DNA of 51,189 bases from an uncultured Planctomycetia bacterium (GCA_964536195.1 CAZHVO010000002.1:1-51189), one strand, 5' to 3'; shown: positions 25,881 to 38,526, numbered from the stretch's first letter. Notes: a model not told the origin generated them from the sequence alone. Translations and numbers: made by a program.

Positions 25881-26767
25881 TGTTCAAATAATCCTGTTAA
25901 GTTCTTGTAAGTAATTTTCTCTCTTGTTTGGGAACCAAGCTCATCTAAAGCTCTAAGGCTATCACCGACATCCGAATTAACCGGATAGTCTGAACCCCAA
26001 AGAATATGGTCTTGGCCAAATAAATCTAAAGCTAACTTTATATTGCCGACAGAAGCCCCTGAGGTATCGACATATACTTCTTTTAGAATTTCAGAAGGCA
26101 ACCGGCCTAAATCTTTAACTATCTCTCTTTTGCGTAACATTGTATAAACTCTATCGAATCTGTCTTTTAAGAAAGGGACAACTCCGCCTAAAGATGCCAG
26201 AATAAACTTTACCTTAAACTTATCTAGCACTCCCTGCATCATAAGGAGTCCGAGAAAAATAGATGTATCTAAACTGTACTCTAAAACCGGCGTAAGCAAG
26301 GGATCTTTTACTCTGTCGTAACCAATAGGATTAATTGTTTGAGCGTGAATGAAGATCGGTAAGCCATGGTTCTCGGCTGCTTCAAATAAAGGGAAAAGCT
26401 TATCAACTATAAACTCACCATCATAGCTTGAGGCCAGATTTATTGCTCTAAACCCTCTCCTTCTTAATTGGGCTAACTCTCTAGAAATATTGTTTAAGTT
26501 CTCTACATCAACTAGACAAGCTGCAATTATCTTAGAATTCTCCTTTAAAATCTTCTCTAACTCCCTATTGTAAATCTCACTAACCCTCTTAAAACCACCT
26601 AATTTAAGGTGAGCATCAGTAGAAGGATAGACTAGGAGAGCCTTATCAATTTTGCTACTATCTAAAAATTCATAGAGCTTATCCTTATTAGCCCAAATAC
26701 CCTTGTAAAAGGTAGTCTGGCTTGAGAGCTCCTCGGGGATAAGGTGGATATGGCTATCAGCTAACAT
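25877..26767 (-). CDS. Amidohydrolase-2 (PF04909-like) family protein; possible non-oxidative decarboxylase or hydrolase
   Basis: N-terminal DSHIHL, internal IHAQ and C-terminal WGSDYP are the metal ligand pattern of the ACMSD/LigW-type TIM-barrel family. Confidence 0.65.
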   Translation of the reverse strand: MLADSHIHLIPEELSSQTTFYKGIWANKDKLYEFLDSSKIDKALLVYPSTDAHLKLGGFKRVSEIYNRELEKILKENSKIIAACLVDVENLNNISRELAQLRRRGFRAINLASSYDGEFIVDKLFPLFEAAENHGLPIFIHAQTINPIGYDRVKDPLLTPVLEYSLDTSIFLGLLMMQGVLDKFKVKFILASLGGVVPFLKDRFDRVYTMLRKREIVKDLGRLPSEILKEVYVDTSGASVGNIKLALDLFGQDHILWGSDYPVNSDVGDSLRALDELGSQTREKITYKNLTGLFEQ

Positions 26768-26770
26768 AAC

Positions 26771-28231
26771 CTATACGTGCTTCTCTCCCTTGATTGCACC
26801 CTCTTCCCACTTAGTTACGCCCTTCATTACATCTTGAAAGCACAACTTAGCTAAAGGGTCAAAATTACTAGTCATAATCCTCTGGATTCGCCCTGGTTTT
26901 GAGAAAAACTCTCTCATACACCAGGCCCCTAATCTTCCATAATCTTCCAAGCTAAGGTGTTCTGTGGCCATTACCGGGTGTAAGAAATCCCACTTAAGAA
27001 AATCAATCTTTTTAGGATCGATCTGGCCTTTTTTCATCCTTTGTCTCCAAATTGGCGAGTTTGGTGCTGGAGTAACATAGCCTATCCACAAAATATCGGG
27101 ATCAACCTGATCAGTAAACTCAAACCTTTGTTTTATGATAGCTTCAGTATCATCATCAAAACCCATCATAATATCGGCAACAATAGCGATATTGTTCTTA
27201 CGCAGAATTTCAATGGTCTTCTTTATCTGATCAATAGTTATACCCTTAGCAATTTTCTTTAACTCTGAAGCGGTAGTGACTTCTATTCCAAATACTCCGG
27301 TAAACAAACCAGACTCTTTCATCAAAGGTAAAATCTCTTCACAATTAACCCAATCAATGGCCCTGCCTAAAGAAACCCATTTAATCGGGTTTTCTTTCTC
27401 TATTTTCATCCGACAAAACTTCTCTACTCGTTTAGCGTCGACATTAAAATTATCATCCTGAATTACTACTACCTTAACCCCATACTCTCTATGAAGCACT
27501 TCCAACTCCTCAATTACCCTTTCCGGAGATTTTGCTCGCCATTTTAAAAAGTCTTCGGGGTGCCTAGGATCATACTGGTCCCACTCATAGCAAAAGGTAC
27601 AAGCTGAAGGGCATCCTCGCGAAGTTACCATCTCAACAAATGGTTTCCAGTGAGTATGTCCAACATATTTATCCATCGGGAATAAATCATAGGCTGGAAG
27701 CGGTAATTTATCTAAATCCATATTCAAAAGTCTATGCGGACCCAAAACAGCTTCACCATCCACTCGCGAGCTCACTCCGGCAATATCCTTCGTCTGTTCT
27801 GATTTATCTAATCGATTAATTAAATCACAAAAAGCTTCTTCTTCCCCCATAACTACATAATCTATTGCCGGATTACTTTCTAAGGTCGGTACCGGCATTG
27901 AAGAATACCATAAGCCGCCGACAATTATCTTTGTATTAGGAAGAGCTTCCTTTACTAACTTTGCCGACTGATTAAAATAATGAAGTATAGCAAACCCGCC
28001 ATAGGAGTGAAGCATATCTCCTAAAACAACTATGTCAGGATTTTTTTCCTTCACTTTTTGAACCATTTCCTGGTTTTCTATTTCTAAGGCCTTACAATCT
28101 AAGACCTCTAAATCCTTATAGCCTTTTTCTCTAATATAAGCAGCCCATTGAGCATAAAGTTGATTAGGCCCTAAGTGTTTACCATGGGTTGCCCAAGCGC
28201 CCGATTTTGGTGTTAAGAATAAAATTTTCAT
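26771..28231 (-). CDS. B12-binding-domain radical SAM enzyme (class B)
   Basis: The N-terminal Rossmann-like B12 domain (KILFLTP...DIVVLGD) is followed by SRGCPSACTFCYEW, the CxxxCxxC radical SAM cluster motif. Confidence 0.85.
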   Translation of the reverse strand: MKILFLTPKSGAWATHGKHLGPNQLYAQWAAYIREKGYKDLEVLDCKALEIENQEMVQKVKEKNPDIVVLGDMLHSYGGFAILHYFNQSAKLVKEALPNTKIIVGGLWYSSMPVPTLESNPAIDYVVMGEEEAFCDLINRLDKSEQTKDIAGVSSRVDGEAVLGPHRLLNMDLDKLPLPAYDLFPMDKYVGHTHWKPFVEMVTSRGCPSACTFCYEWDQYDPRHPEDFLKWRAKSPERVIEELEVLHREYGVKVVVIQDDNFNVDAKRVEKFCRMKIEKENPIKWVSLGRAIDWVNCEEILPLMKESGLFTGVFGIEVTTASELKKIAKGITIDQIKKTIEILRKNNIAIVADIMMGFDDDTEAIIKQRFEFTDQVDPDILWIGYVTPAPNSPIWRQRMKKGQIDPKKIDFLKWDFLHPVMATEHLSLEDYGRLGAWCMREFFSKPGRIQRIMTSNFDPLAKLCFQDVMKGVTKWEEGAIKGEKHV

Positions 28232-28262: not shown

Positions 28263-29030
28263 TTATTTTTTTGGGTGATCTTGCTTAAACGGTATAACTG
28301 GCTTCATCCAAGGCGTTTGCTGATTTATTACTGCCAACTCTAAAGGGCAGGCATTGCCGCTTTGAGTAAGAGCAAACAAAACTGTATCAGCTATTGTCTC
28401 CGGCTCCATCAATCTCCCGGTTTCCTGAGATATATCTTTTAGCTTACCAGTTAAAGGGGTTCTGGTTACTCCCGGAAATATTGAAGTAACTTTAATCCCA
28501 AAATCGCGCATCTCCCAGAAAAGCCCTTTAGCAAAAGCTCTTAAGGCAACTTTTAAGGAAGTATAGACTATGAAATTACGCGGTGGAGGGTCAACCATAA
28601 CTGAACCACTGGTAATATTTACAATATGCCCGTAGCCAGCATCTTTCATATGGTTAACAACTAAGCGCGAAAGCATAACGTAGCTGTAGTAATTTGTATA
28701 GATAATTTTTTCTATATCCTCTATCGGCTGCTGCCAAAAAGGATATTGGCTTGAGACTCCTGCTCCATTAATAACAATATCAATTTTCCCAAACTTATCT
28801 AAGGTCTTGCTGACTAAATTCTCTAAATCACTCTGCTTGGTAACATCACACTTAACAGAGGAAACTTTATCTTTATCAGGAAGGGACTTCCTGATATCTT
28901 CTAAGACCTCTACCCTTCTGGCAGCAAGAATTAGCTTACAACCTTGGCCAGCTAATTTTTCAACCAGGCTCCTGCCAATCCCACCACTTGCTCCGGTTAT
29001 AATACAAACTTTATCCTGTAACTTATCCAT
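28263..29030 (-). CDS. Short-chain dehydrogenase/reductase; candidate polyketide ketoreductase
   Basis: ITGASGGIGRS, NGAG and the catalytic YTSLK (YxxxK). Confidence 0.8.
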   Translation of the reverse strand: MDKLQDKVCIITGASGGIGRSLVEKLAGQGCKLILAARRVEVLEDIRKSLPDKDKVSSVKCDVTKQSDLENLVSKTLDKFGKIDIVINGAGVSSQYPFWQQPIEDIEKIIYTNYYSYVMLSRLVVNHMKDAGYGHIVNITSGSVMVDPPPRNFIVYTSLKVALRAFAKGLFWEMRDFGIKVTSIFPGVTRTPLTGKLKDISQETGRLMEPETIADTVLFALTQSGNACPLELAVINQQTPWMKPVIPFKQDHPKK

Positions 29031-30168
29031 ATTGCTCCTTTTCTTGCTTTATTACTCTCTTTAAATTAAAACCTAAAAAGAATAGACTTAAACATATTAC
29101 AATAAATAAGGCTTTAAACCCAGCTAAAGATACTAACAGCCCTCCTAGAAAAGCACCCAAGCCCCCGAAGCTAAAACGTAAAGAACTATTTAAACTTGAG
29201 GCATCACGCAGGAGGTTGTCAGGAAAATGAGTAAGATGGGAAGACAAACCAATATGAGAAAGAGCCATGCCTGCCCCCCATAAGGTTATCATTAAACAAA
29301 TTAGCTTATAATCTCTTATAAAGATAAGAGAAAAAGCAAACAGGCTCATTAGAATAAAACCAATGCTGCTTACCTTAATATTTCCGAAACGAGCGCTTAG
29401 GAAGCCTCCGGAAAACTCAAATATTATTGCCGCTAGAGTAGCGACGGTAAAAATTGAACTTATAGCCATCTGGTCGAGAGAAAAACTCTCGCTTAAATAA
29501 ACACCTAAACGTTGCTGCAGGCCATGGTAAAAAAGACTTCCCAACATAATAACAATAAAAAAATTGACCACTTTTTTATTTTTTAGAGTCTTAAGATAGC
29601 TTAACTTAAATTTATCAACTCTGAAATCAAAATCATCAAGATGAGTAAATACTAAAACAAATACTAATAAACTTAAAACAGTTGGTATCAAATATAGAAA
29701 TAATGGCGAACTGGCAAAGAAACCGCTTAAAAACACACTGACAAAACTTGAAAGATATGATAGAGCAAAGAATATTCCAATATATTTGGATCTCTTCTCT
29801 ATAGGAACAGCTTTACCTATAGTAATGAGGGCGACCGGAACAAAACTGCAGCCAAAGCAACCCATAAGAAATCTAAATATAAAAGCTTGCTCTATACTCT
29901 TTGATAAGCTAAAGAATAAAGAGGATATAAAAAATCCTAAAGTTGTAAAAAGAAGGATTTTTTTTACTTTAGCTATCCTTGAAAAAGGACCCCAGATAAG
30001 GGCAAATAATCCATAAGGAAGCATGTAAAGCCAAGTAAGCGGTAAAGCTTGAGTTTTAGCTATCCCGAAATAAACAGCTATTGACGGTATTAGAGCTGCC
30101 ATAGCTCCCACCCCAAAAGATACAGCAAAAAACATCAAACAAAATATATAGAAACTTAACTTAGGCAT
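29023..30168 (-). CDS. MFS transporter
   Basis: About 12 predicted TM helices with the typical hydrophobic periodicity. It overlaps both neighbouring genes. Confidence 0.7.
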   Translation of the reverse strand: MPKLSFYIFCLMFFAVSFGVGAMAALIPSIAVYFGIAKTQALPLTWLYMLPYGLFALIWGPFSRIAKVKKILLFTTLGFFISSLFFSLSKSIEQAFIFRFLMGCFGCSFVPVALITIGKAVPIEKRSKYIGIFFALSYLSSFVSVFLSGFFASSPLFLYLIPTVLSLLVFVLVFTHLDDFDFRVDKFKLSYLKTLKNKKVVNFFIVIMLGSLFYHGLQQRLGVYLSESFSLDQMAISSIFTVATLAAIIFEFSGGFLSARFGNIKVSSIGFILMSLFAFSLIFIRDYKLICLMITLWGAGMALSHIGLSSHLTHFPDNLLRDASSLNSSLRFSFGGLGAFLGGLLVSLAGFKALFIVICLSLFFLGFNLKRVIKQEKEQYG

Positions 30169-30598
30169 TAGCTTCTTTTTCTATTATCTGCTTAAATATC
30201 TTTAGATTATTCTGGGAGTGCTTATTTATTAATCCTTCAACTTGAGAGTCGGTATATTTAGCCTTAACGTCCATAGTAAAATCCTGAACCCAAGTCATTT
30301 CAACTCCGGCCTCTACTTCTCTGTAAAGCCAGATAATTTTCATATACTGAAAAGGAAACATCGGTTCTATTCGGCAAGCATAAGCAAATTTATCTTCCTT
30401 AAAAAGCAGACGAGAAGATTTCCAGCTATTTCCGTCCTTATTGGTAAGCTGAAAAGTAATCTTATTACCTTCTACCGCTAAAACATCTGAGGCTGAATAT
30501 TCATCAAATAGTTCTTTCCAACGGGAAATATCATTGCTAATATCAAATACCTTACTGTATGGTGCATTGATTATGATTGAATTCGCTGTATGTGCCAT
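30161..30598 (-). CDS. SRPBCC-fold polyketide aromatase/cyclase (TcmN ARO/CYC-like)
   Basis: From the internal Met, the sequence MAHTANSIIINAPYSKVFDISNDISRWKELFDEYS...FQYMKIIWLYREVEAGVEMTWVQDFTMD tracks the TcmN N-terminal cyclase sequence as I recall it. The ORF track instead starts 11 codons upstream, at 30631. Confidence 0.75.
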   Translation of the reverse strand: MAHTANSIIINAPYSKVFDISNDISRWKELFDEYSASDVLAVEGNKITFQLTNKDGNSWKSSRLLFKEDKFAYACRIEPMFPFQYMKIIWLYREVEAGVEMTWVQDFTMDVKAKYTDSQVEGLINKHSQNNLKIFKQIIEKEANA

Positions 30599-30617
30599 AA
30601 ATCCTCCTTTGTTAGTT

Positions 30618-31415
30618 TTAGAAAACCGCAACTACCCTTGCCCAAGCAGCACCGGTCTTTATTATTCTTACTGGAAAACAAATAACTTTAAACCCAAAAT
30701 TCGGCAGCTTATCTAAATTAGCTAATCTCTCAATATGGGCAAACTCTCTCTTTCGACCATGAAAATGGGCTGGCCAAAGATGCCGGGGGTCTCTATTCTT
30801 CAGAAAATCCTTGATCATGAACTTATAGGGCCTATCAATACCCATAGTATCTACCCCGAATATCTTTATCCCCTTATCAAGAAGATAATCTATGGCTGAT
30901 GAGTCTATTCCCGGGTAATCACTAAAATACTCAGGCTTGCCATGTAAGTGATCAGAACCAGTATGAATAAGAACAATGTCCATAGGCTTTAAGGTATAAT
31001 TTATCTTCTCTAAAGCCTTTTCTAAATCCTCTTTCTTAATAACCTCATCTGCTCCTTTATCGGTAAGGTCTAACTTTACTCCATCACGGTTACACCACTC
31101 TAAAGGTATCTGGTCAGCTGTCTTTGAAGGCTTACCTTCAGATTTACTCCCGTAGTGAAAGGAATAATCAAGGTGGGTTCCGCTATGCACAGAAGAGTGT
31201 ACTATTTCTAAAGATAAAAACTCTCCATCAGGCAAGTCTTCCCTTCCAATTATTCTCTTACCTAATAAATACTGAATCTTCCCCTTTAGGGTCTTAGCCA
31301 TCAATACCTTATTAAGCTTCTCAACCCCTTGTCTGTGGGATGTTCGTTCAATTTCAAGTTTATGAACCTCAAAGGCTTTATCGTCAATAGGCAAACTTAA
31401 ATCTACTATCTTCAT
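30618..31415 (-). CDS. Cyclase-family (PF04199, kynurenine formamidase-like) metal-dependent enzyme
   Basis: HSGTHLDYSFH matches the HxGTHxDxxxH signature of the family. Confidence 0.75.
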   Translation of the reverse strand: MKIVDLSLPIDDKAFEVHKLEIERTSHRQGVEKLNKVLMAKTLKGKIQYLLGKRIIGREDLPDGEFLSLEIVHSSVHSGTHLDYSFHYGSKSEGKPSKTADQIPLEWCNRDGVKLDLTDKGADEVIKKEDLEKALEKINYTLKPMDIVLIHTGSDHLHGKPEYFSDYPGIDSSAIDYLLDKGIKIFGVDTMGIDRPYKFMIKDFLKNRDPRHLWPAHFHGRKREFAHIERLANLDKLPNFGFKVICFPVRIIKTGAAWARVVAVF

Positions 31416-31433: not shown

Positions 31434-31667
31434 TTACCCTTTCTTCTTCTCGATTACCCCAACAATCTCATTGAGAGTGGAGAATTTGGTAATCTCATTA
31501 GTCTCAATCTTTACACCAAAGTGCTTATTAAAGGTAACCACTAACTCCACCATCTCTGTTGAGTCAACACCTATAGAGTCATATAATTTCTGGTCTTCTC
31601 CTATCTCGGCCTTTGCTATATCCAAAGTCTTGCTTACAACTTCAAAGACCTCTTCCTTTATACCCAT
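31434..31667 (-). CDS. Acyl carrier protein
   Basis: A 77-aa acidic protein with the phosphopantetheine site GVDSTEMVELV. Confidence 0.85.
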   Translation of the reverse strand: MGIKEEVFEVVSKTLDIAKAEIGEDQKLYDSIGVDSTEMVELVVTFNKHFGVKIETNEITKFSTLNEIVGVIEKKKG

Positions 31668-31676
31668 AAATACCTC

Positions 31677-32912
31677 CTATTTCTTCTCAATGGCTAAAAC
31701 AACATTTATCCCGCCCCGTCCTCTGGCAATAATCAGGGCTTTGTTTATCTTTTTTTGTTTAAGTTTATTTGGGGTGTAATCTAAATCGCAATAAGGGTCA
31801 CTCATTACCTGGTTAATCGTCGGTATTACTGTTGAGTTCTTCATTGAGAAAAGAGTGACAATTAGATCTAGGGCACTTTGAGCGCCTAATAAATTACCAT
31901 AAATACTCTTAGGAGCGCTAAGAGTAATATTTTTTATCTTTTCCCCAAAGACATTTTTTAAGGCCTGGGTCTCAAGATAATCTCCAACTACAGTTGCCTC
32001 ACCATCTAGACAGATGTAGTCTACATCTTCCTTATTCCACTTGGCATCCTCTAAACACTTCTCGATTGCATACTCTAGATCATCTGAACTAGGAGCATAT
32101 CTTGAGTAGTGATAGCCATCGGATGAGAAACCTATCCCTTTAATAAACCCGTAGATAGGAACTCCTCGACTTTTGGCTTTAGATTCTTTCTCTAAGACCA
32201 CTATTCCTGAGCCCTCACCTAAAACAAAACCATCTCTATCTAAATCATAAGGTTTATATGCTGTTTTAGGATTAAGACTATTCTTTGATAAACTACCACA
32301 AGTATTTGCGCTCAATAAAGCGTAAGGAGTAATCGGAGCTTCCATTCCTCCGGCTAATACGAAATCATTTTTATCCTGAGCTATTACCTTAGAACCATAC
32401 CATAAACTCAGAGCTGACGAGGCCTTATCGGCAACTATAGTCTTACTATAGCCTTTAAAGCCATAGTATATAGTGACCTGGCCTTGGGGCGCTGCTGGAA
32501 ACCAGGCTGAAGCCATATAAGGAGAAATTCCTTCCCTACCCTCTATATACATATCTCTTAGCTCAGTCTCAGCAAAAAGCCAGCCGCCAATAGCATTACC
32601 CATAAACACGCCGACTCTATCCTTATCAATTTTTTCTAAATCCATTCCAGCATCATTTATGGCCTGTTCTGAGGCAACTAGAGCCATATGGGAAAAAACA
32701 TCTATCTTCTTGACTAACCTTCCTGAAACATGTGAATAGTGATCAAGCTCATGAACTTGGCCAGCAATCCGAGAAGGATAAAGGCTGGCATCAAATCTCT
32801 TAATCTCATCAACAAAAGATTCACATTTTTTAAGATTAGCCCAAAAAGTCTCTTTTTTCAATCCACAAGGTGAAACTACACCTAGGCCGGTTATTGCAAC
32901 TCTATCACTCAT
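31677..32912 (-). CDS. Ketosynthase beta / chain-length-factor-like subunit (catalytically inactive KS)
   Basis: KS fold, but the active-site Cys position reads VADKASS, where KS-alpha has STGCTAG. The two catalytic His positions read LDGEAT and YGNLLG. Confidence 0.75.
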   Translation of the reverse strand: MSDRVAITGLGVVSPCGLKKETFWANLKKCESFVDEIKRFDASLYPSRIAGQVHELDHYSHVSGRLVKKIDVFSHMALVASEQAINDAGMDLEKIDKDRVGVFMGNAIGGWLFAETELRDMYIEGREGISPYMASAWFPAAPQGQVTIYYGFKGYSKTIVADKASSALSLWYGSKVIAQDKNDFVLAGGMEAPITPYALLSANTCGSLSKNSLNPKTAYKPYDLDRDGFVLGEGSGIVVLEKESKAKSRGVPIYGFIKGIGFSSDGYHYSRYAPSSDDLEYAIEKCLEDAKWNKEDVDYICLDGEATVVGDYLETQALKNVFGEKIKNITLSAPKSIYGNLLGAQSALDLIVTLFSMKNSTVIPTINQVMSDPYCDLDYTPNKLKQKKINKALIIARGRGGINVVLAIEKK

Positions 32913-32915
32913 TGA

Positions 32916-34163
32916 TTACCTCCACCTCTTAAACACAATAGAAGAATGAATTCCAGAAAATCCACTGCTAGTTTTAAGTATATACTCTGGTAAAAGTTGT
33001 CTTTTCTTATTAGGAATATAATCTAAGTCACACTTAGGATCAGGTTCTTCTTGATTAATAGTTGGCGGAAGATATCCTTCCTGGAATATCATGCAACACA
33101 ATACGCTCTCTACAGCATTAGCAGCTGCTAGGGGATGCCCAATCATCGACTTAATCGAACTTATTGGCACCTTATAAGCAAAATCTCCTAAAACTCTTTT
33201 GTAAGCATCAGTTTCAAAGGCATCATTCTGGCGAGTAGATGAGCCGTGAGCATTTATATAACCAATATCCTCATTGTTTATCCCTGAATTCTTTATTGCT
33301 TCCCGCATAGAACGAGCCATAGGCTCACCATCTTCAGGCAAATCAGTCATATGATAAGCATTGCAACTTGTCCCATAGCCGAGAATTTCAGCGTAAATAT
33401 GGGCTCCCCTGGCCTTAGCATGTTCTAATTCTTCTAAAATCAAAATTCCTGCTGCCTCGCTAAGAACAAAACCATTCCTCTTGTTATCAAAAGGACGACT
33501 AGCCTTATGAGGTTGCTGGTTATTTTTAGCTAAAACACTTACTACATCAAAAGCTCCAAAGGTAATCGGCGTAACTGGTGCCTCGGTTGCCCCGGCAATA
33601 ACTAAGTCTTGCCTCCCCTCTTGAATAAGTTCATAAGCAAAGCCTAAAGAATCAGTTCCAGCAGTACAACCGGTTGAAATTGTACAATTTATTCCCTTAG
33701 TCCCATAAATAGCACTTACTTCGGCACTAGGAGTATTAAACATAGCCGCATCGTAAAGATAAGGTCGCCCCTTTCGGGGATCAATCGGATTCTTACCCCA
33801 ATCAGTAACTAATAAAAACTCCTCTTCCATAAAACGGGTTCCGCAAATAGCATTTGCTAAAATCACACCACATCTACGTTTATCTAATTTATTAAGATCT
33901 AGATTGGCATCCTCTATAGCACCCTTAGCCGCGGCAATTCCAAATTGAACATATCTATCCATACGTATATGGTCAGTTATGCCAAACTTTAAGGGGTCAA
34001 AATTTAAATCCTGAGAAGCTATTTGTGAAAGAAATAAACTCACATCAAAATTCTCAACCCTCTCAACACAAGGTTTACCTTCAATCAAATTATTATAAAA
34101 TTCATTCTTTTCTTCTCCGGCGGCAGAAATAACTCCAATTCCAGTAATTACTACTCTCTTCAC
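32916..34163 (-). CDS. Type II PKS ketosynthase alpha
   Basis: Active site CTISTGCTAGTDSLGFAYELIQEG, IAGATEAPVTPITFGAFD, ASRPFDNKRNGFVL, and His motifs INAHGSST and SMIGHPL. FMEEEF..VTD and YLYD are KS-alpha-type rather than FabF-type. Confidence 0.8.
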   Translation of the reverse strand: MKRVVITGIGVISAAGEEKNEFYNNLIEGKPCVERVENFDVSLFLSQIASQDLNFDPLKFGITDHIRMDRYVQFGIAAAKGAIEDANLDLNKLDKRRCGVILANAICGTRFMEEEFLLVTDWGKNPIDPRKGRPYLYDAAMFNTPSAEVSAIYGTKGINCTISTGCTAGTDSLGFAYELIQEGRQDLVIAGATEAPVTPITFGAFDVVSVLAKNNQQPHKASRPFDNKRNGFVLSEAAGILILEELEHAKARGAHIYAEILGYGTSCNAYHMTDLPEDGEPMARSMREAIKNSGINNEDIGYINAHGSSTRQNDAFETDAYKRVLGDFAYKVPISSIKSMIGHPLAAANAVESVLCCMIFQEGYLPPTINQEEPDPKCDLDYIPNKKRQLLPEYILKTSSGFSGIHSSIVFKRWR

Positions 34164-34190: not shown

Positions 34191-34775
34191 TTAATCTTCT
34201 TTTCTGGTAACTTTAAAAATGATATTCCCGCCATCGGGACAGGTAACTGTATCTATAGAGTTTTGATTCTCCATAAAAGGAAACTTTGCTCCAAAATTTA
34301 GAGCAAACAAAGCTGGGAAAGCTACATGCCAGGCTGCCCCGCAAAACCCAGGGATACATTTTAAGCCTTGGGTTTCCCACTTATCCCCAACTTTATAATT
34401 ATAACTACACTTACCCTTAGCTTTAACAACCTCAATAATCATATTCTTAGGATTTGGCCCTTTAAAATCAGGGTCTTTATCAACTACATCAACCTTACCC
34501 TCTTTATTAAAAATCTCAGCCTTAAACTCTAGTTTTCCACCATCAGGGCAAGTTACTAGCAGAGACCTTTGATTATCCCTAAAAGGGAATTTTGCTCCAA
34601 AACTTAGACCGTAAATTACTGGAAATAATGCATGGGCTAGACCTAAACAAAAATGTTTAGGTGGATGAGTGAAATCCTCCAAAATAAGTTCATCACCGAT
34701 CTTGTAGCCATGATAGCAATGGCCGTAGACTTTATTTACTGTAAGTTTTAGTTTAGGAAAAGGTGTTTTAACCAT
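34191..34775 (-). CDS. Tandem-duplicated Cys/His-rich small domain protein (TIGR04076-like)
   Basis: Two ~95-aa halves share Y.(V/I)GD...FC...H..FP....L.FGAKFPF..NQ.S....CPDGG..(F/I)K. Confidence 0.5.
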   Translation of the reverse strand: MVKTPFPKLKLTVNKVYGHCYHGYKIGDELILEDFTHPPKHFCLGLAHALFPVIYGLSFGAKFPFRDNQRSLLVTCPDGGKLEFKAEIFNKEGKVDVVDKDPDFKGPNPKNMIIEVVKAKGKCSYNYKVGDKWETQGLKCIPGFCGAAWHVAFPALFALNFGAKFPFMENQNSIDTVTCPDGGNIIFKVTRKED

Positions 34776-34776
34776 A

Positions 34777-35772
34777 TCAGATCTCCATTTCTTTTACTAA
34801 TTCTTCCTTTTTAAAAAACTTCTTTGACTCCTCTACTCTATGAACCAACTCAACTATTTTACTATTTAATGGTGCTTGGAGATTATTTTCAGAAGCTATT
34901 TTTACAATTTCACCGTTGATGTAATCAATCTCTGAAGGCCGACCACTCTTTATGCTCTGTAATATTGAACCATAAAGAGGCTGTTTGCTCAAAGAGACCA
35001 TTACTTTTGAAAAAATACCAGAAGCTGCCTCTATATCCATTGAAACTAACCCCTCTAATCTGGCTAAAGGATAAGTAGGCAAATCAGCTAACTCTATACA
35101 GCTGTTTTTAACAACATCGAATGCCTCTTTGTTTATTCTTATTGCTAGTTTTGCTAAAGCTAAATCAGCAAAGGTCTCCTGCATTGATAAACCTAAAATT
35201 GCCGGAACACAATTATTAAGATTGATCAAAAGCTTAAGATATTTAGCTCCTTTTATTTTATCTAAAACCACAGTATCAAAACCCAATTTTAAAAAACTCT
35301 CTACTGCCTCGATATCCGCTGCTGCCTTATTAAATATATTACCTAATATTAAATTACCTTTAAAATTATGAACTATTTTGTTTGGCCGGTAAAATGTTGC
35401 TCCAAACATCACAATACTGCTTATAATATTCTCTTGAGAAAAATAACTGCCAAGAATATTCTCCGCTCTTACTCCATTCTGAGCACTAATTACAACTGCA
35501 TCTTTTAAATACTCTAAATTTTCCTTTACCAAAACCTCTAAATCACCAATCTTGCTAGCAAAAATAGCTAAATCTACCTTTTCTCTAAGCTGACTATCAA
35601 CCCTTACCTTATAGGTATTTTTATCTGTTTCGTTTTCAATGATTAACCCATTCTCAAGCAAAGGCTGCTTCTGATAATCTTTAACTACTCCCACAACATC
35701 CAGGTTCTGTTTTGAAAGATAGCCCAAAAATAATCCGCCAATTGCCCCGCAACCTAAAACTGCAGCTTTCAT
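34777..35772 (-). CDS. Ketopantoate reductase (ApbA/PanE) family NAD(P)H oxidoreductase
   Basis: N-terminal MKAAVLGCGAIGG Rossmann motif. Length and the C-terminal helical domain fit the family. Confidence 0.7.
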   Translation of the reverse strand: MKAAVLGCGAIGGLFLGYLSKQNLDVVGVVKDYQKQPLLENGLIIENETDKNTYKVRVDSQLREKVDLAIFASKIGDLEVLVKENLEYLKDAVVISAQNGVRAENILGSYFSQENIISSIVMFGATFYRPNKIVHNFKGNLILGNIFNKAAADIEAVESFLKLGFDTVVLDKIKGAKYLKLLINLNNCVPAILGLSMQETFADLALAKLAIRINKEAFDVVKNSCIELADLPTYPLARLEGLVSMDIEAASGIFSKVMVSLSKQPLYGSILQSIKSGRPSEIDYINGEIVKIASENNLQAPLNSKIVELVHRVEESKKFFKKEELVKEMEI

Positions 35773-36047
35773 TACTCTTCTGTCTTCCCCTGATCAACAT
35801 ATTGTGAATAATCAACATTTAGCTGAGTAAGCAACCTTTGGAGCATCCCTTTAAAAGCCGGGGGAACCTCCTGAAAAAAGGCGGTAATTAAATCTTTATC
35901 TTCAACTTCTTGAGAATTTCTTTTCTTGGCCAGCTCTTCAGATTTTTGTTTAATCAATTGCTCAGCGATTGTTCTGTGAAATTGCGGCAAATTTTCTATT
36001 ATCTTATCACGCTTAATCTTAGTTTCTTCTTTCCAAACAACTTCCAT
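35772..36047 (-). CDS. Small hypothetical protein (91 aa)
   Basis: The ORF is translationally coupled (its stop overlaps the next start). The W-KEE...IENLPQFHRTIAEQ stretch faintly resembles a PCP-reductase-type helical domain, which is not enough to name it. Confidence 0.35.
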   Translation of the reverse strand: MEVVWKEETKIKRDKIIENLPQFHRTIAEQLIKQKSEELAKKRNSQEVEDKDLITAFFQEVPPAFKGMLQRLLTQLNVDYSQYVDQGKTEE

Positions 36048-36065: not shown

Positions 36066-36800
36066 TTATAATTTGTCAACTACTCCAAAGGCTAAATCAG
36101 TCATTTTCATCTCAGCTTCAAAAAATCTATAATCAGCAAACCCTAAAGTTCCGGTTATGAGATTATCAGATACTGCTAAGACGGCCGCAACTTTTTTCTT
36201 ATAAATATTAGCTACAGTAACAAACGGAGATGTTACCATATCAACAGCAATCGCACCCTTTTTAATATAAGGATTAACTATCTCCTTGGTTTCCTTAAAT
36301 AATGCATCAGTTGTCCAAACTCCTCCTCGATGTATAGTGCCGGCGGTTTTGAAAACCTCTTCTATATTTGAAGTTAAATCGCTGTCAACTTTAGAAATAT
36401 AATTATCATCTACATAATACTTAGTTGCACCGTCACCACGAATAATATCAGTAGCCAAGATGTAATCTCCGACATTGATATCTTCTCTCAAGGCTCCACA
36501 AGAACCCAGTCTGATTAAAGTATTGATTCCGCCAACACATAAAAACTCAGTAACGAAGGCAGAATCGGGAGCATAAAACCCGCCATTGCCCACAGTTACT
36601 TTCTTGCCCTTATAAAACCCGGTCCAAAAGGTATAACCAAGAAAGGTAAAATTCTTAACACAATTTTCTAATTTATCTAAGCACATCTTTGCTCTATGTT
36701 GCTGCCCGCTAATTAAAGCTACTTCGCCAAAATCACCTTCCCTAAATTGTAGAGAGCCAAGAAGCTCTTTGGGGCTTAGATGGATATCTCTTTGCATCAT
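36066..36800 (-). CDS. PNP/UDP-1 family nucleoside phosphorylase
   Basis: GNGGFYAPDSA, RLGSCGAL, the GDG/ATKYY region and AVDMVTS resemble DeoD/Udp/MtnP-type phosphorylases. Confidence 0.7.
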   Translation of the reverse strand: MMQRDIHLSPKELLGSLQFREGDFGEVALISGQQHRAKMCLDKLENCVKNFTFLGYTFWTGFYKGKKVTVGNGGFYAPDSAFVTEFLCVGGINTLIRLGSCGALREDINVGDYILATDIIRGDGATKYYVDDNYISKVDSDLTSNIEEVFKTAGTIHRGGVWTTDALFKETKEIVNPYIKKGAIAVDMVTSPFVTVANIYKKKVAAVLAVSDNLITGTLGFADYRFFEAEMKMTDLAFGVVDKL

Positions 36801-38431
36801 AATTGTTCTCCTGTTTTGAGTTTTCCTTTATCAATCTTTCCGGTTCTATTTTTAGGTAAGCCTCCTACGAATTCAAAGTAATGGGGGATTTTAAAGTGAG
36901 CTAAGTGTTCTTTTAAGAAGTCTTTTAGCTCTTGCTCACTTAAAATCTCCTCTTGTTTAGAAACTATAAATGCTTTAGGAACCTCTCCGCGTAACTTATC
37001 AGCTACACCAATAACAGCAACTTCTTTTACCTTAGGATATCTATTTATCTTTTCTTCAACTTCAGCTAAGGAAACTATTTCTCCGGCCACCTTAATCATA
37101 TCTTTTTTTCTTCCGACTATATAATGAAGCCGGTCAGAGTCAACTCTGACAATATCCCCGGTCTTAAGCCAGCCATCTTCGGTTAATACCTCTTTAGTTA
37201 GACCGGGTTCCTTATAATACTCTCTCATAACCGCTGGGCCCTTAACCCAGAGCTCTCCTTGAGAAGGCCCCTCTAACTTATTACCAGCATCATCGACAAT
37301 TTTTGCCTCGAGATTAAAGTCAAAATAACCAATGCTTGAGATTTTACTATCATCAGAAGGAGAATAAGCATTCGGAGCAGAAGTCTCGGTCATGCCCCAG
37401 CCATTTAAAATTACAGCCTGAGGGCATACCCTATGAAATCTCTTCAAGAGCATTGGCGATGAAGGGGCACCAAAAACAACTGCATATCTTAAACAAGAAA
37501 GGTCAAATTTATCGTACCCTTTTAAGGAAAGAATGGCTACATACATTGCCGGAACAATACAGAATATAGTAACTTTATGGTACTCTATACTCTTTAGAAA
37601 CTCAAAAGGATTAAACCTACTCATAAGAACAAGTGGCGATGTAAAGGTAATCATAAGAAGTATGTAGTCTAACCCGCCAATGTGTGAGAAAGGAACTCCA
37701 CCGCATAAGAAGACATCATCTCCAGATAATCCCAGAAAGTGATCAATTGTCTGAGAAGGATTATCGAGATGCCTATACTCTAAACATACCCCTTTAGGAT
37801 GGCCGGTAGAACCCGAGGTATAAAATATAGCTGCCAAATCATCCTCCCTGTGCTCAACCGAAGGTTGATCAGGGCTACTTTCTTCTAGAGCTACATCCCA
37901 AGAAGTAACTTCGCTTCGCCGCAGGCGAAGTTCAGAACGAAGTTCTGCCGAAGTTCCTTGCGGTAGCTCTGATTGCAAATCAAAACCCTTATCTTTACTT
38001 TGACGTATTTCATGCTTATTCTTACCGCAAGAAAATTCTCCTGATTCTTGCCCACATACAATTATCTTCTCCAAACTTACACACTTAGTCTTAATATTAG
38101 CTAAATCGATTTTTACGGCAGCAATTAAAACTTTTGCCTGACTATGATTTATAAAATTAATTATCTCATTCTCAGTTAACATAAAATCCAGAGGAACTAC
38201 TGCTGAGCCTATAGTAAATACACCTAAAAAGGTGAATATAGCTTCAGGGGTATTGGGAAGGAATGTAGCAACTTTATCGCTGCTGGTTAGGCCTATTTTA
38301 AGAAGGTAATTAGCAAGCCTAAATGAAGAATCTCTAACTTGAGAAAAGGTAATTGCTTTACCTTGAAATAAAATAGCTGATTTTTGAGGATATTGTTCAG
38401 CCTGTTTTGTGAGTAATTTTCTTATATTCAT
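36797..38431 (-). CDS. AMP-dependent synthetase/ligase (acyl- or aryl-CoA/ACP ligase) with an internal insertion
   Basis: IFYTSGSTGHPKGV, GWGMTE, TGDIVRVD and PKNRTGKI are present. An extra ~40 aa precede the AMP motif. Confidence 0.85.
   Translation of the reverse strand: MNIRKLLTKQAEQYPQKSAILFQGKAITFSQVRDSSFRLANYLLKIGLTSSDKVATFLPNTPEAIFTFLGVFTIGSAVVPLDFMLTENEIINFINHSQAKVLIAAVKIDLANIKTKCVSLEKIIVCGQESGEFSCGKNKHEIRQSKDKGFDLQSELPQGTSAELRSELRLRRSEVTSWDVALEESSPDQPSVEHREDDLAAIFYTSGSTGHPKGVCLEYRHLDNPSQTIDHFLGLSGDDVFLCGGVPFSHIGGLDYILLMITFTSPLVLMSRFNPFEFLKSIEYHKVTIFCIVPAMYVAILSLKGYDKFDLSCLRYAVVFGAPSSPMLLKRFHRVCPQAVILNGWGMTETSAPNAYSPSDDSKISSIGYFDFNLEAKIVDDAGNKLEGPSQGELWVKGPAVMREYYKEPGLTKEVLTEDGWLKTGDIVRVDSDRLHYIVGRKKDMIKVAGEIVSLAEVEEKINRYPKVKEVAVIGVADKLRGEVPKAFIVSKQEEILSEQELKDFLKEHLAHFKIPHYFEFVGGLPKNRTGKIDKGKLKTGEQL
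37905..37960. repeat. In-frame GC-rich mini-repeat / hairpin cluster inside the ligase gene
   Basis: The coding strand carries GAACTTCG three times, followed by the inverted copy GCGAAGTT (an 8-bp perfect stem AACTTCGC/GCGAAGTT). It encodes SAELRSELRLRRSEV. Confidence 0.6.
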
Positions 38432-38526
38432 TCTTTAAATGGTAGTAAAATTTGAGTAGTAAAATTTTACTATTCATAGTTAATTAGTCAAGAAAAATAT
38501 GGTTTCGGCAGAAACAGATTTTTCTT

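Follow-up and report, generated by a model that had tools for sequence, protein, structure and literature searches.

A stretch of 51,189 nucleotides from an uncultured Planctomycetia bacterium (GCA_964536195.1 CAZHVO010000002.1:1-51189; hereafter the window) encodes, at 31677..34163 on its minus strand, the ketosynthase (KS) as well as the chain-length factor (CLF) of a polyketide synthase (PKS) of type II. An earlier note on this DNA had pointed to a lysine in place of the canonical glutamine of the CLF, to the loss of both catalytic histidines from the same protein, and to an AMP-binding ligase gene at the head of the operon, and had suggested that the chain is primed with an activated acid rather than acetate. 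On balance, the system is probably an old-branch type II PKS in which Lys163 of the CLF is structural and the ligase activates a primer. The CLF belongs, as an unremarkable member, to a branch that is known though little studied, and its lysine appears to be the conservative variant, found in one Omnitrophota subgroup, of an arginine that marks the old non-actinobacterial branch.

A basic residue in the dead pocket

The KS gene (32916..34163, minus strand) specifies a 415-residue KS-alpha with both ketoacyl-synthase Pfam domains and an intact Cys166-His306-His343 triad (codons at 33666-33668, 33246-33248, and 33135-33137, respectively, minus strand). The CLF (411 residues; 31677..32912, minus strand) has PF00109 and PF02801 with a dead triad of Lys163, Asp303, and Asn340. 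Both ketoacyl-synthase domains without the catalytic cysteine, next to an intact KS-alpha, an acyl carrier protein (ACP), and cyclases, identify it as a KS-beta. BLASTP aligns the two proteins at 34% identity (E 9e-79) with no gap around the site and places TISTGCTAG of the KS over TIVADKASS of the CLF, so that KS Cys166 faces CLF Lys163 (AAG, 32424-32426; the GAT AAG codons of Asp162-Lys163 lie at 32424..32429, minus strand). In the same alignment, AHGSST falls on LDGEAT, replacing His306 by Asp303, and IGHPLA falls on YGNLLG, replacing His343 by Asn340 (codon at 31893-31895). MAFFT and HMMER alignments against FabF and the actinorhodin CLF confirm this register; that of the actinorhodin CLF (PDB 1TQY chain B) was carried onto the present CLF by MAFFT through a representative sequence, P0230, rather than aligned to it directly. 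The pairing of STGCTAG with VADKASS that the earlier note had made by eye is thus borne out, as is its observation that the CLF lacks both catalytic histidines: a lysine, and no glutamine, occupies the priming position.

Conservation argues against a chance substitution at this site. In a close set of 121 sequences, the query with its top 120 homologues at 70-94% identity (all named sources Omnitrophota/Omnitrophica), residue 163 is basic throughout, Lys in 78 and Arg in 43, and is therefore better described as a conserved basic residue. Asp162 is invariant in this set, and Asp303 and Asn340 are each present in 120 of 121. A search of representatives at 50% identity was dominated by multi-KS type I PKSs, and the 35 of its 150 matches shorter than 900 residues were used. 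Asp-Arg or Asp-Lys (Glu-Arg in two) is found in 12 other single or fused CLF-like representatives. One representative, P0138, is 42% identical to the CLF and reads VADR; it comes from Clostridium beijerinckii and has a cluster member from C. puniceum. Representatives from Ktedonobacter racemifer (P0171) and Archangium (P0190) also have a basic residue at the site, and the CLFs of the Laceyella sacchari locus and of cyanobacteria read VCDR. A second scan, by alignment of the representatives against genomes, gave 80 loci, 79 of which passed a length filter; they come from C. puniceum, L. sacchari, Orenia, 18 cyanobacteria, Thermodesulfobacteriota, a Syntrophobacter metagenome-assembled genome (MAG), a Dehalococcoidales MAG, and a deeper Omnitrophota group, among others. 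Arg or Lys follows the Asp in 76 of the 79 scored CLFs. The three exceptions, all from Nitrospirae (L085, L088, L089), have Asp-Ser; these CLFs, the only non-basic ones of the 80-locus scan, also have Asn at the first-His position.

Phylogeny agrees with this grouping, as far as a quick maximum-likelihood tree, whose careful search is unfinished, can be read. The Omnitrophota CLFs stand beside those of Syntrophobacter/Dehalococcoidales and Thermodesulfobacteriota; clostrubin-type and thermorubin/cyanobacterial CLFs form the neighboring clade; and actinorhodin-like CLFs form a clade of their own (SH-aLRT 99) with the Omnitrophota CLFs outside it. The present CLF is placed in the old branch by its Asp plus Arg/Lys where the Cys would be and by the accompanying cyclases of the PF04199 and SRPBCC families. 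Assignment to the classical actinorhodin type was rejected, given A-D-K-A-S-S instead of [ED]-Q-A-G-G and the separate clade. In a PDB search the CLF scores better to FabF (3.6e-84) than to the actinorhodin CLF (3.2e-59). Its best CLF-like solved match is 9S5H chain B (2.5e-60), which may be the protein of a preprint on an anammox pair discussed below; 6SMO chain B, considered with the Photorhabdus anthraquinone PKS, scores 1.8e-49.

The statement that classical CLFs carry Gln at this position holds in part. It is true of the actinorhodin CLF, which reads vaEQagg (Glu-Gln) with Asp at the first-His and Arg at the second-His position, and of six of eight actinomycete plasmid CLFs, a sample taken from 25 listed of 267 matching records and not composed of characterized systems; the remaining two have Glu and Gly. 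Nor is Gln universal even within actinorhodin-like CLFs: all 111 of those found with the Ktedonobacteria query P0230, a biased sample, lack it (Ala in 100, Gly in 8, Ser in 2, Thr in 1). All eight actinomycete plasmid CLFs have Asp and Arg at the two His positions. Because both histidines are gone from these and from the actinorhodin CLF, their loss is the normal state of a CLF and is uninformative on priming.

A comparison of the branches suggests what the basic residue may be doing. Old-branch CLFs have an acid/base/acid pattern at 162/163/303: the Cys position is taken by Arg/Lys and the second-His position by Asn or His. In classical CLFs the pattern is acid/Gln/acid, and Arg stands where the second His would be. 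The base seems to have moved from one position to the other between the branches, and a buried charge network in the dead pocket, with the base placed differently in each branch, would fit this pattern. Basic 163 is paired with acidic 303 in most sequences, the compared rows being mutually related. Exceptions are the Ktedonobacter-type CLFs (Arg with both histidines kept), the actinorhodin-like CLFs (non-basic 163 with Asp303), and the Nitrospirae CLFs (Ser with Asn), and the pairing is suggestive at most. Lying in a dead pocket beside Asp162 and opposite Asp303, Lys163 is most likely a buried charged or structural residue rather than a starter switch, although it may have a part in catalysis or substrate binding.

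The site residue and the starter unit

The evidence says that the residue at this site does not track the starter unit. A strict version of the original proposal would have Lys for Gln, with the loss of both histidines, disable self-priming, so that priming by the ligase with a non-acetate acid is obligatory and the residue is diagnostic. Strict conservation of Lys/Arg in close homologues, conservation of the ligase in the cluster, and the place of the salicylate-primed, ligase-containing thermorubin/Gloeocapsa-type systems in the Arg branch are all in keeping with such a mechanism, but the actinorhodin CLF and eight of eight actinomycete CLFs do without both histidines as well, and systems with a variety of residues at the site behave otherwise than it would require. 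A clostrubin-type locus of C. puniceum has Arg at the site and no AMP-binding gene among the 18 open reading frames (ORFs) of a 17-kb stretch that extends 8 kb to either side. The carbon skeleton of clostrubin is all-acetate.

Experimental work on other systems points the same way. Given malonyl-CoA alone and no primer, the minimal PKS of Gloeocapsa sp. PCC 7428 is reported to make C24 and C26 products, all of whose carbons are shifted by 13C-malonyl-CoA; addition of the cluster ligase, ATP, and salicylate yields salicyl-primed C29 products, and the cluster resembles the salicylate-primed thermorubin cluster of L. sacchari (PMC11744666). Arginine in the PCC 7428 CLF itself is predicted from relatives of the Gloeocapsopsis CLF, of which 120 out of 120 have Asp-Arg. 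An anammox KS/CLF-like heterodimer in which the site is Val or Thr retains the decarboxylation of malonyl-ACP (preprint 10.64898/2026.05.19.726425). Photorhabdus AntE, which belongs to an all-malonate pathway, has Asp opposite the actinorhodin Gln by the authors' figure legend (PMC6638757). Conversely, the minimal PKSs of actinorhodin and tetracenomycin, which have Gln, can be primed with propionyl or isobutyryl in place of acetate by a foreign initiation module, that of R1128 (PMC12664062). Obligatory, residue-diagnosed priming is accordingly very unlikely. Neither the lysine nor the missing histidines can be kept as pointers to a non-acetate primer, since Arg/Lys is typical of the old non-actinobacterial branch whatever the starter. 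Having Gln at the CLF "active site" characterizes the actinomycete proteins and does not extend to all CLFs; for this reason neither its absence nor the two-His loss can predict a non-acetate starter when non-actinomycete genomes are mined.

By homology, the KS and CLF would form the heterodimer of an old-branch aromatic PKS related to those of clostrubin and thermorubin. Among known systems, the clostrubin-type PKS of C. beijerinckii/C. puniceum (ClrA/ClrB, PMC7693217) has an Asp-Arg CLF 41-42% identical to the present one. Like this operon, the C. puniceum locus belongs to an anaerobe and contains KS, CLF, TIGR04076-like, PF04199 cyclase, SRPBCC, and Amidohydro_2 genes; its designation as the clostrubin cluster follows from the organism names and that report, not from a locus map. 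Unlike this operon, its 17 kb hold no AMP-ligase, phosphorylase, MtnA-like, aldolase, aldehyde dehydrogenase, B12 radical S-adenosylmethionine (SAM), or ApbA gene, its ACP is distal, it has its own phosphopantetheinyl transferases (PPTases), and its CLF has Glu at the first-His position and keeps the second His. The thermorubin (L. sacchari) and Gloeocapsa gloPKS systems share with this operon a cluster ANL ligase and PF04199 and SRPBCC cyclases, and have Asp-Arg CLFs (L096 and 18 cyanobacterial loci), whereas their CLFs are only 36-39% identical to this one and they have no nucleoside-trimming module. For the Gloeocapsa system, ligase-dependent priming of the ACP is described in vitro (PMC11744666).

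More distant systems share fewer features. The actinorhodin KS/CLF (1TQY) has the same fold family and pairing, and its CLF likewise lacks the Cys and both histidines and has Asp at the first-His position, but it differs in having Glu-Gln for Asp-Lys and Arg for Asn at the second-His position. Photorhabdus AntDEF with AntG is, like the present system, non-actinobacterial, with a CLF devoid of Gln and a cluster ligase that matters for yield, and its product is all-malonate (PMC6638757); AntE and AntG were compared through the authors' description rather than by alignment to this operon. The anammox pair amxFabF2/amxFabFmut is, as here, a KS with an inactive partner KS, encoded next to B12 radical SAM genes in an anaerobic host, but it has Val/Thr at the site and makes fatty acids, not aromatic polyketides, with no cyclases (10.64898/2026.05.19.726425). 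A full-text search, PMC13685256 and PMC10698177 included, found no discussion of Arg or Lys at this CLF position, and the Ktedonobacter preprint mentions neither Gln nor Arg. No report of a type II PKS in Omnitrophota was found in the parts of the candidate papers that were examined.

The ligase and a possible origin of the primer

The ligase gene (36797..38431, minus strand) encodes a 544-residue protein with the motifs YTSGSTGHPKGV, NGWGMTET, and PKNRTGKIDK intact. It is the sole PF00501 (ANL) match in the genome, in which no Acs- or FadD-type gene was found (the assembly being 92% complete). Its nearest NCBIfam model, "long-chain-fatty-acid--CoA ligase" (NF004837), gives 407.7 bits against a cut-off of 476. 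With that score, as the genome's only ANL gene and one that is kept with the cluster, it was rejected as a stray housekeeping FadD. The suggestion that the ligase is dedicated to the cluster gains from the same score and solitary status, and from synteny. Of 56 close Omnitrophota loci, the 42 that reach 7 kb or more upstream of the CLF include the ligase in 40 cases; the exceptions are two chromosomes (CP070807, CP070684) that carry a ligase-phosphorylase-91-residue protein-ApbA block elsewhere. In the deeper Omnitrophota group, five of five genomes have a ligase (50-59% identity) at 2-3 kb upstream of the cluster locus. The best 80 ligase relatives bear Omnitrophota titles or are named "uncultured Planctomycetia/Planctomycetales," "bacterium," or "uncultured bacterium," and most have the same operon neighbors. 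Three gene orders recur: that of the window; ligase-phosphorylase-MtnA-aldolase-aldehyde dehydrogenase-radical SAM-...-KS-CLF; and ...-phosphorylase-MtnA-aldolase-aldehyde dehydrogenase-ligase. The ligase is thus first in the co-directional run of the window, as had been noted, and is not always first in relatives.

An in-cluster ANL ligase with intact adenylation motifs that is conserved with its cluster is what a ligase-primed PKS presents, and ligase-type primers have precedents in EncN and AuaEII (PMC12664062). With no ketosynthase III (KSIII) and no acyltransferase among the domain-annotated genes of the operon, the ligase is the only candidate initiation enzyme. A homologous KS-CLF core in the Syntrophobacter MAG (L258, G308:C2:12000-31000) is preceded by two AMP-ligases with two small ORFs between them. 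Over their C-terminal two thirds, these ligases are 44-45% identical to that of the operon. Genes for a phosphorylase, MtnA, or an aldolase are missing from that KS-CLF locus, a finding that links acid activation to the PKS core in addition to the nucleoside-trimming module.

A possible route from nucleoside to primer can be outlined. The phosphorylase, MtnA-like isomerase, class II aldolase, and aldehyde dehydrogenase could act in succession on a 5'-substituted 5'-deoxy-nucleoside to yield dihydroxyacetone phosphate (DHAP) and X-CH2-COOH. The ligase most likely adenylates a carboxylic acid and delivers it to the PKS for priming as a thioester of CoA or ACP; this acid is probably the product of the phosphorylase/isomerase/aldolase/dehydrogenase branch. 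Malonyl-ACP for extension would be supplied by the genome's own FabD and acetyl-CoA carboxylase. If the nucleoside were methylthioadenosine or another adduct, the primer would not be acetate; 5'-deoxyadenosine would give acetate, and hence even a priming ligase need not yield a non-acetate starter.

Priming by a ligase-activated acid is therefore plausible and unproven. Of the pointer that the earlier note had seen in the ligase, the conserved cluster ligase stands, whereas we infer both its priming role and its acid. The chance that the PKS receives a primer from the ligase seems slightly better than even, that the primer is something other than acetate somewhat below even, and that the ligase serves salvage or tailoring only lower still, if not small; these likelihoods overlap and are looser than those given to the competing explanations. 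A more specific scheme is unlikely: the operon would make its own non-acetate primer from a SAM-derived nucleoside, either methylthioadenosine or an adduct comparable to adenosylhopane or aminofutalosine that is formed by the B12 radical SAM enzyme of the operon, which would undergo phosphorolysis, isomerization, cleavage to DHAP and an aldehyde, and oxidation, and the acid would be loaded onto the PKS by the genome's sole adenylating ligase. Starter generation of this kind would be without described precedent in the literature consulted. If the ligase does prime the PKS, starter units would here come from a new source, giving a first way into the chemistry of an uncultured phylum.

Several observations weigh against a priming ligase, or at least against reading its substrate. 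In CP070807 (L040/L171) and CP070684 (L032/L204), the ligase-phosphorylase-91-residue protein-ApbA block lies hundreds of kb from the TIGR04076-KS-CLF-ACP block and the rest. At four Omnitrophota-labelled loci (L208, L209, L214, L216), where the relative of the ligase is 46-49% identical, no other gene of the operon lies within 9 kb; these may be paralogues or further split operons. Across 77 ligase loci, the phosphorylase gene starts at most 1.2 kb downstream of the ligase in 51 and the ligase follows the aldehyde dehydrogenase in 11, whereas a KS or CLF gene shares the locus in 38. Linkage is thus tighter to the phosphorylase/aldehyde dehydrogenase module than to KS-CLF; this adjacency makes the nucleoside-trimming enzymes the seemingly closest functional partners of the ligase, and a salvage or tailoring role would fit too. 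With its counterparts in the Laceyella and cyanobacterial loci the ligase shares only 23-28% identity, and its match to anthranilate-CoA ligase 4WV3 (6.6e-45) ranks behind those to 4-coumarate-CoA ligase (4CL) and FadD5, so that it does not count as an orthologue of a characterized primer ligase. Its best solved relatives, about 30% identical, are generic: 4CL (1.6e-60), feruloyl-CoA synthetase, FadD5, and luciferases (about 1e-60 to 1e-55). Tyr239 and Ser243 of Nt4CL2, which we take to be substrate-pocket positions, are replaced by Gly and Tyr. Low identity and generic relatives make the substrate unreadable from sequence. Finally, the Photorhabdus cluster ligase AntG raises formation of an all-malonate octaketide 13-fold (PMC6638757), and a cluster ligase need therefore not imply a non-acetate primer.

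Two alternatives take up this evidence. In one, which we hold to be unlikely, the ligase belongs to salvage or detoxification: 5'-deoxyadenosine released by the operon's radical SAM enzyme would be converted to DHAP and acetaldehyde, then to acetate and acetyl-CoA, while the PKS primes itself. The ligase is indeed contiguous with the phosphorylase, MtnA-like, aldolase, and aldehyde dehydrogenase genes in two of the three arrangements, its block with the phosphorylase is far from KS-CLF in two genomes, and the enzymes match DHAP-shunt families, at scores below threshold. The MtnA-like protein reaches 231.6 against a cut-off of 271 (NF004326) and passes the eIF-2B_rel subfamily model (191.3 versus 185.85); the aldolase and phosphorylase fall far under every cut-off. 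Salvage sits less well with a second PNP_UDP_1 gene elsewhere in the genome (contig C41), which makes the operon phosphorylase an extra copy, with the fact that the module, in any of three gene orders, stays with the PKS genes throughout the phylum, and with the Syntrophobacter relative, whose ligases adjoin the core where the phosphorylase, MtnA, and aldolase are absent. In the ligase motif NGWGMTE, the alignment has Gly at what is presumably the position of the pocket-closing Trp of acetate-specific acetyl-CoA synthetases.

The other alternative, less likely than salvage, has the ligase act late, activating either the carboxyl of the released polyketide or an acyl donor for tailoring, or assisting the loading or activation of the ACP in the manner of AntG (PMC6638757). 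The ligase is the last gene of the third arrangement, directly after the aldehyde dehydrogenase, and the Syntrophobacter ligases stand beside an aldehyde:ferredoxin oxidoreductase able to reduce an activated or free acid; on the other hand, domain annotation of the operon genes revealed no PPTase that could be the partner of the ligase, and the best family matches of the aldehyde dehydrogenase are to the ordinary oxidizing kind. An enzyme of that kind runs from aldehyde to acid, which points to a place upstream of the ligase.

The operon and its host

Judged by the source names of the close CLF homologues, the host is an uncultured member of the Omnitrophota; its assembly comprises 1.17 Mb in 124 contigs and is 91.7% complete. 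The aromatic polyketide operon, about 16 kb, takes up more than 1% of this small genome, and its KS/CLF pair accounts for two of the three KS genes, the third being FabF on another contig. FabD, acetyl-CoA carboxylase subunits, and one AcpS are encoded elsewhere. The operon is a co-directional run of 17 genes that starts at 38431 and ends at 22449 (minus strand), with the ligase first and the aldehyde dehydrogenase last. A promoter-like site, TTGACT-16-TAAAAT (38464..38491, minus strand), in the 137-bp gap upstream of the ligase is at chance level, a scan of this gap giving one site against 1.2 expected in shuffles.

Between the ligase and the KS lie four genes, all, like those that follow, on the minus strand and assigned by family match unless stated otherwise. 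A PNP_UDP_1 nucleoside phosphorylase-like protein (36066..36800) is the most constant neighbor of the ligase. Next is a conserved 91-residue protein (35772..36047) with a weak DUF2621 match; it was ruled out as an ACP, as no Ser motif was seen, and it accompanies ApbA in all operon arrangements. An ApbA/PanE-family NAD(P)H oxidoreductase (34777..35772) and a tandem TIGR04076-family protein (34191..34775) complete this part. A TIGR04076 homologue (38% identity) directly follows the CLF in the C. puniceum locus (L077:9262-9789), and others are present in the Thermodesulfobacteriota, Syntrophobacter, and Dehalococcoidales clusters; the tandem protein may be an unrecognized core part of old-branch aromatic PKSs.

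The KS stop and CLF start are separated by 3 nt, and 9 nt separate the CLF from the start of the 77-residue ACP (31434..31667; GVDSTEM motif, Ser36), which is absent from an ORF listing with an 80-residue minimum and present with a 30-residue minimum. The next genes encode a PF04199 "Cyclase" family protein (30618..31415), 46% identical to its counterpart in the C. puniceum locus, and an SRPBCC polyketide cyclase/aromatase-like protein (30161..30631). Farther along are a major facilitator superfamily transporter (29023..30168), a short-chain dehydrogenase that is a candidate ketoreductase (28263..29030), a B12-binding radical SAM enzyme (26771..28231) whose best NCBIfam model, BchE, scores under its cut-off, and an Amidohydrolase_2 family protein (25877..26767) with a homologue in the C. 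puniceum locus. The run closes with the MtnA-like (IF-2B family) sugar-1-phosphate isomerase (24930..25880), the class II aldolase (23939..24937), which has a weak C-terminal SCP2 match, and the aldehyde dehydrogenase (22449..23942), found directly upstream of the ligase in other arrangements. The Syntrophobacter core is also preceded by genes for DUF374, an amine-oxidase-like flavoprotein, an FMN reductase, a B12 radical SAM enzyme, the aldehyde:ferredoxin oxidoreductase, and ApbA, with MMPL and LolA-like genes upstream.

Among 301 sampled Omnitrophota genomes, 84 have a CLF orthologue (E <= 1e-100), in 60 of 210 genera. The distribution is patchy by family, with 38 of 46 and 7 of 8 genomes positive in some families and 0 of 18 and 0 of 15 in others. 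antiSMASH "ladderane" clusters have been reported in Omnitrophota MAGs from the Cariaco Basin (PMC9902471), and such calls may stem from this operon, in which KS genes are accompanied by one for a B12 radical SAM enzyme.

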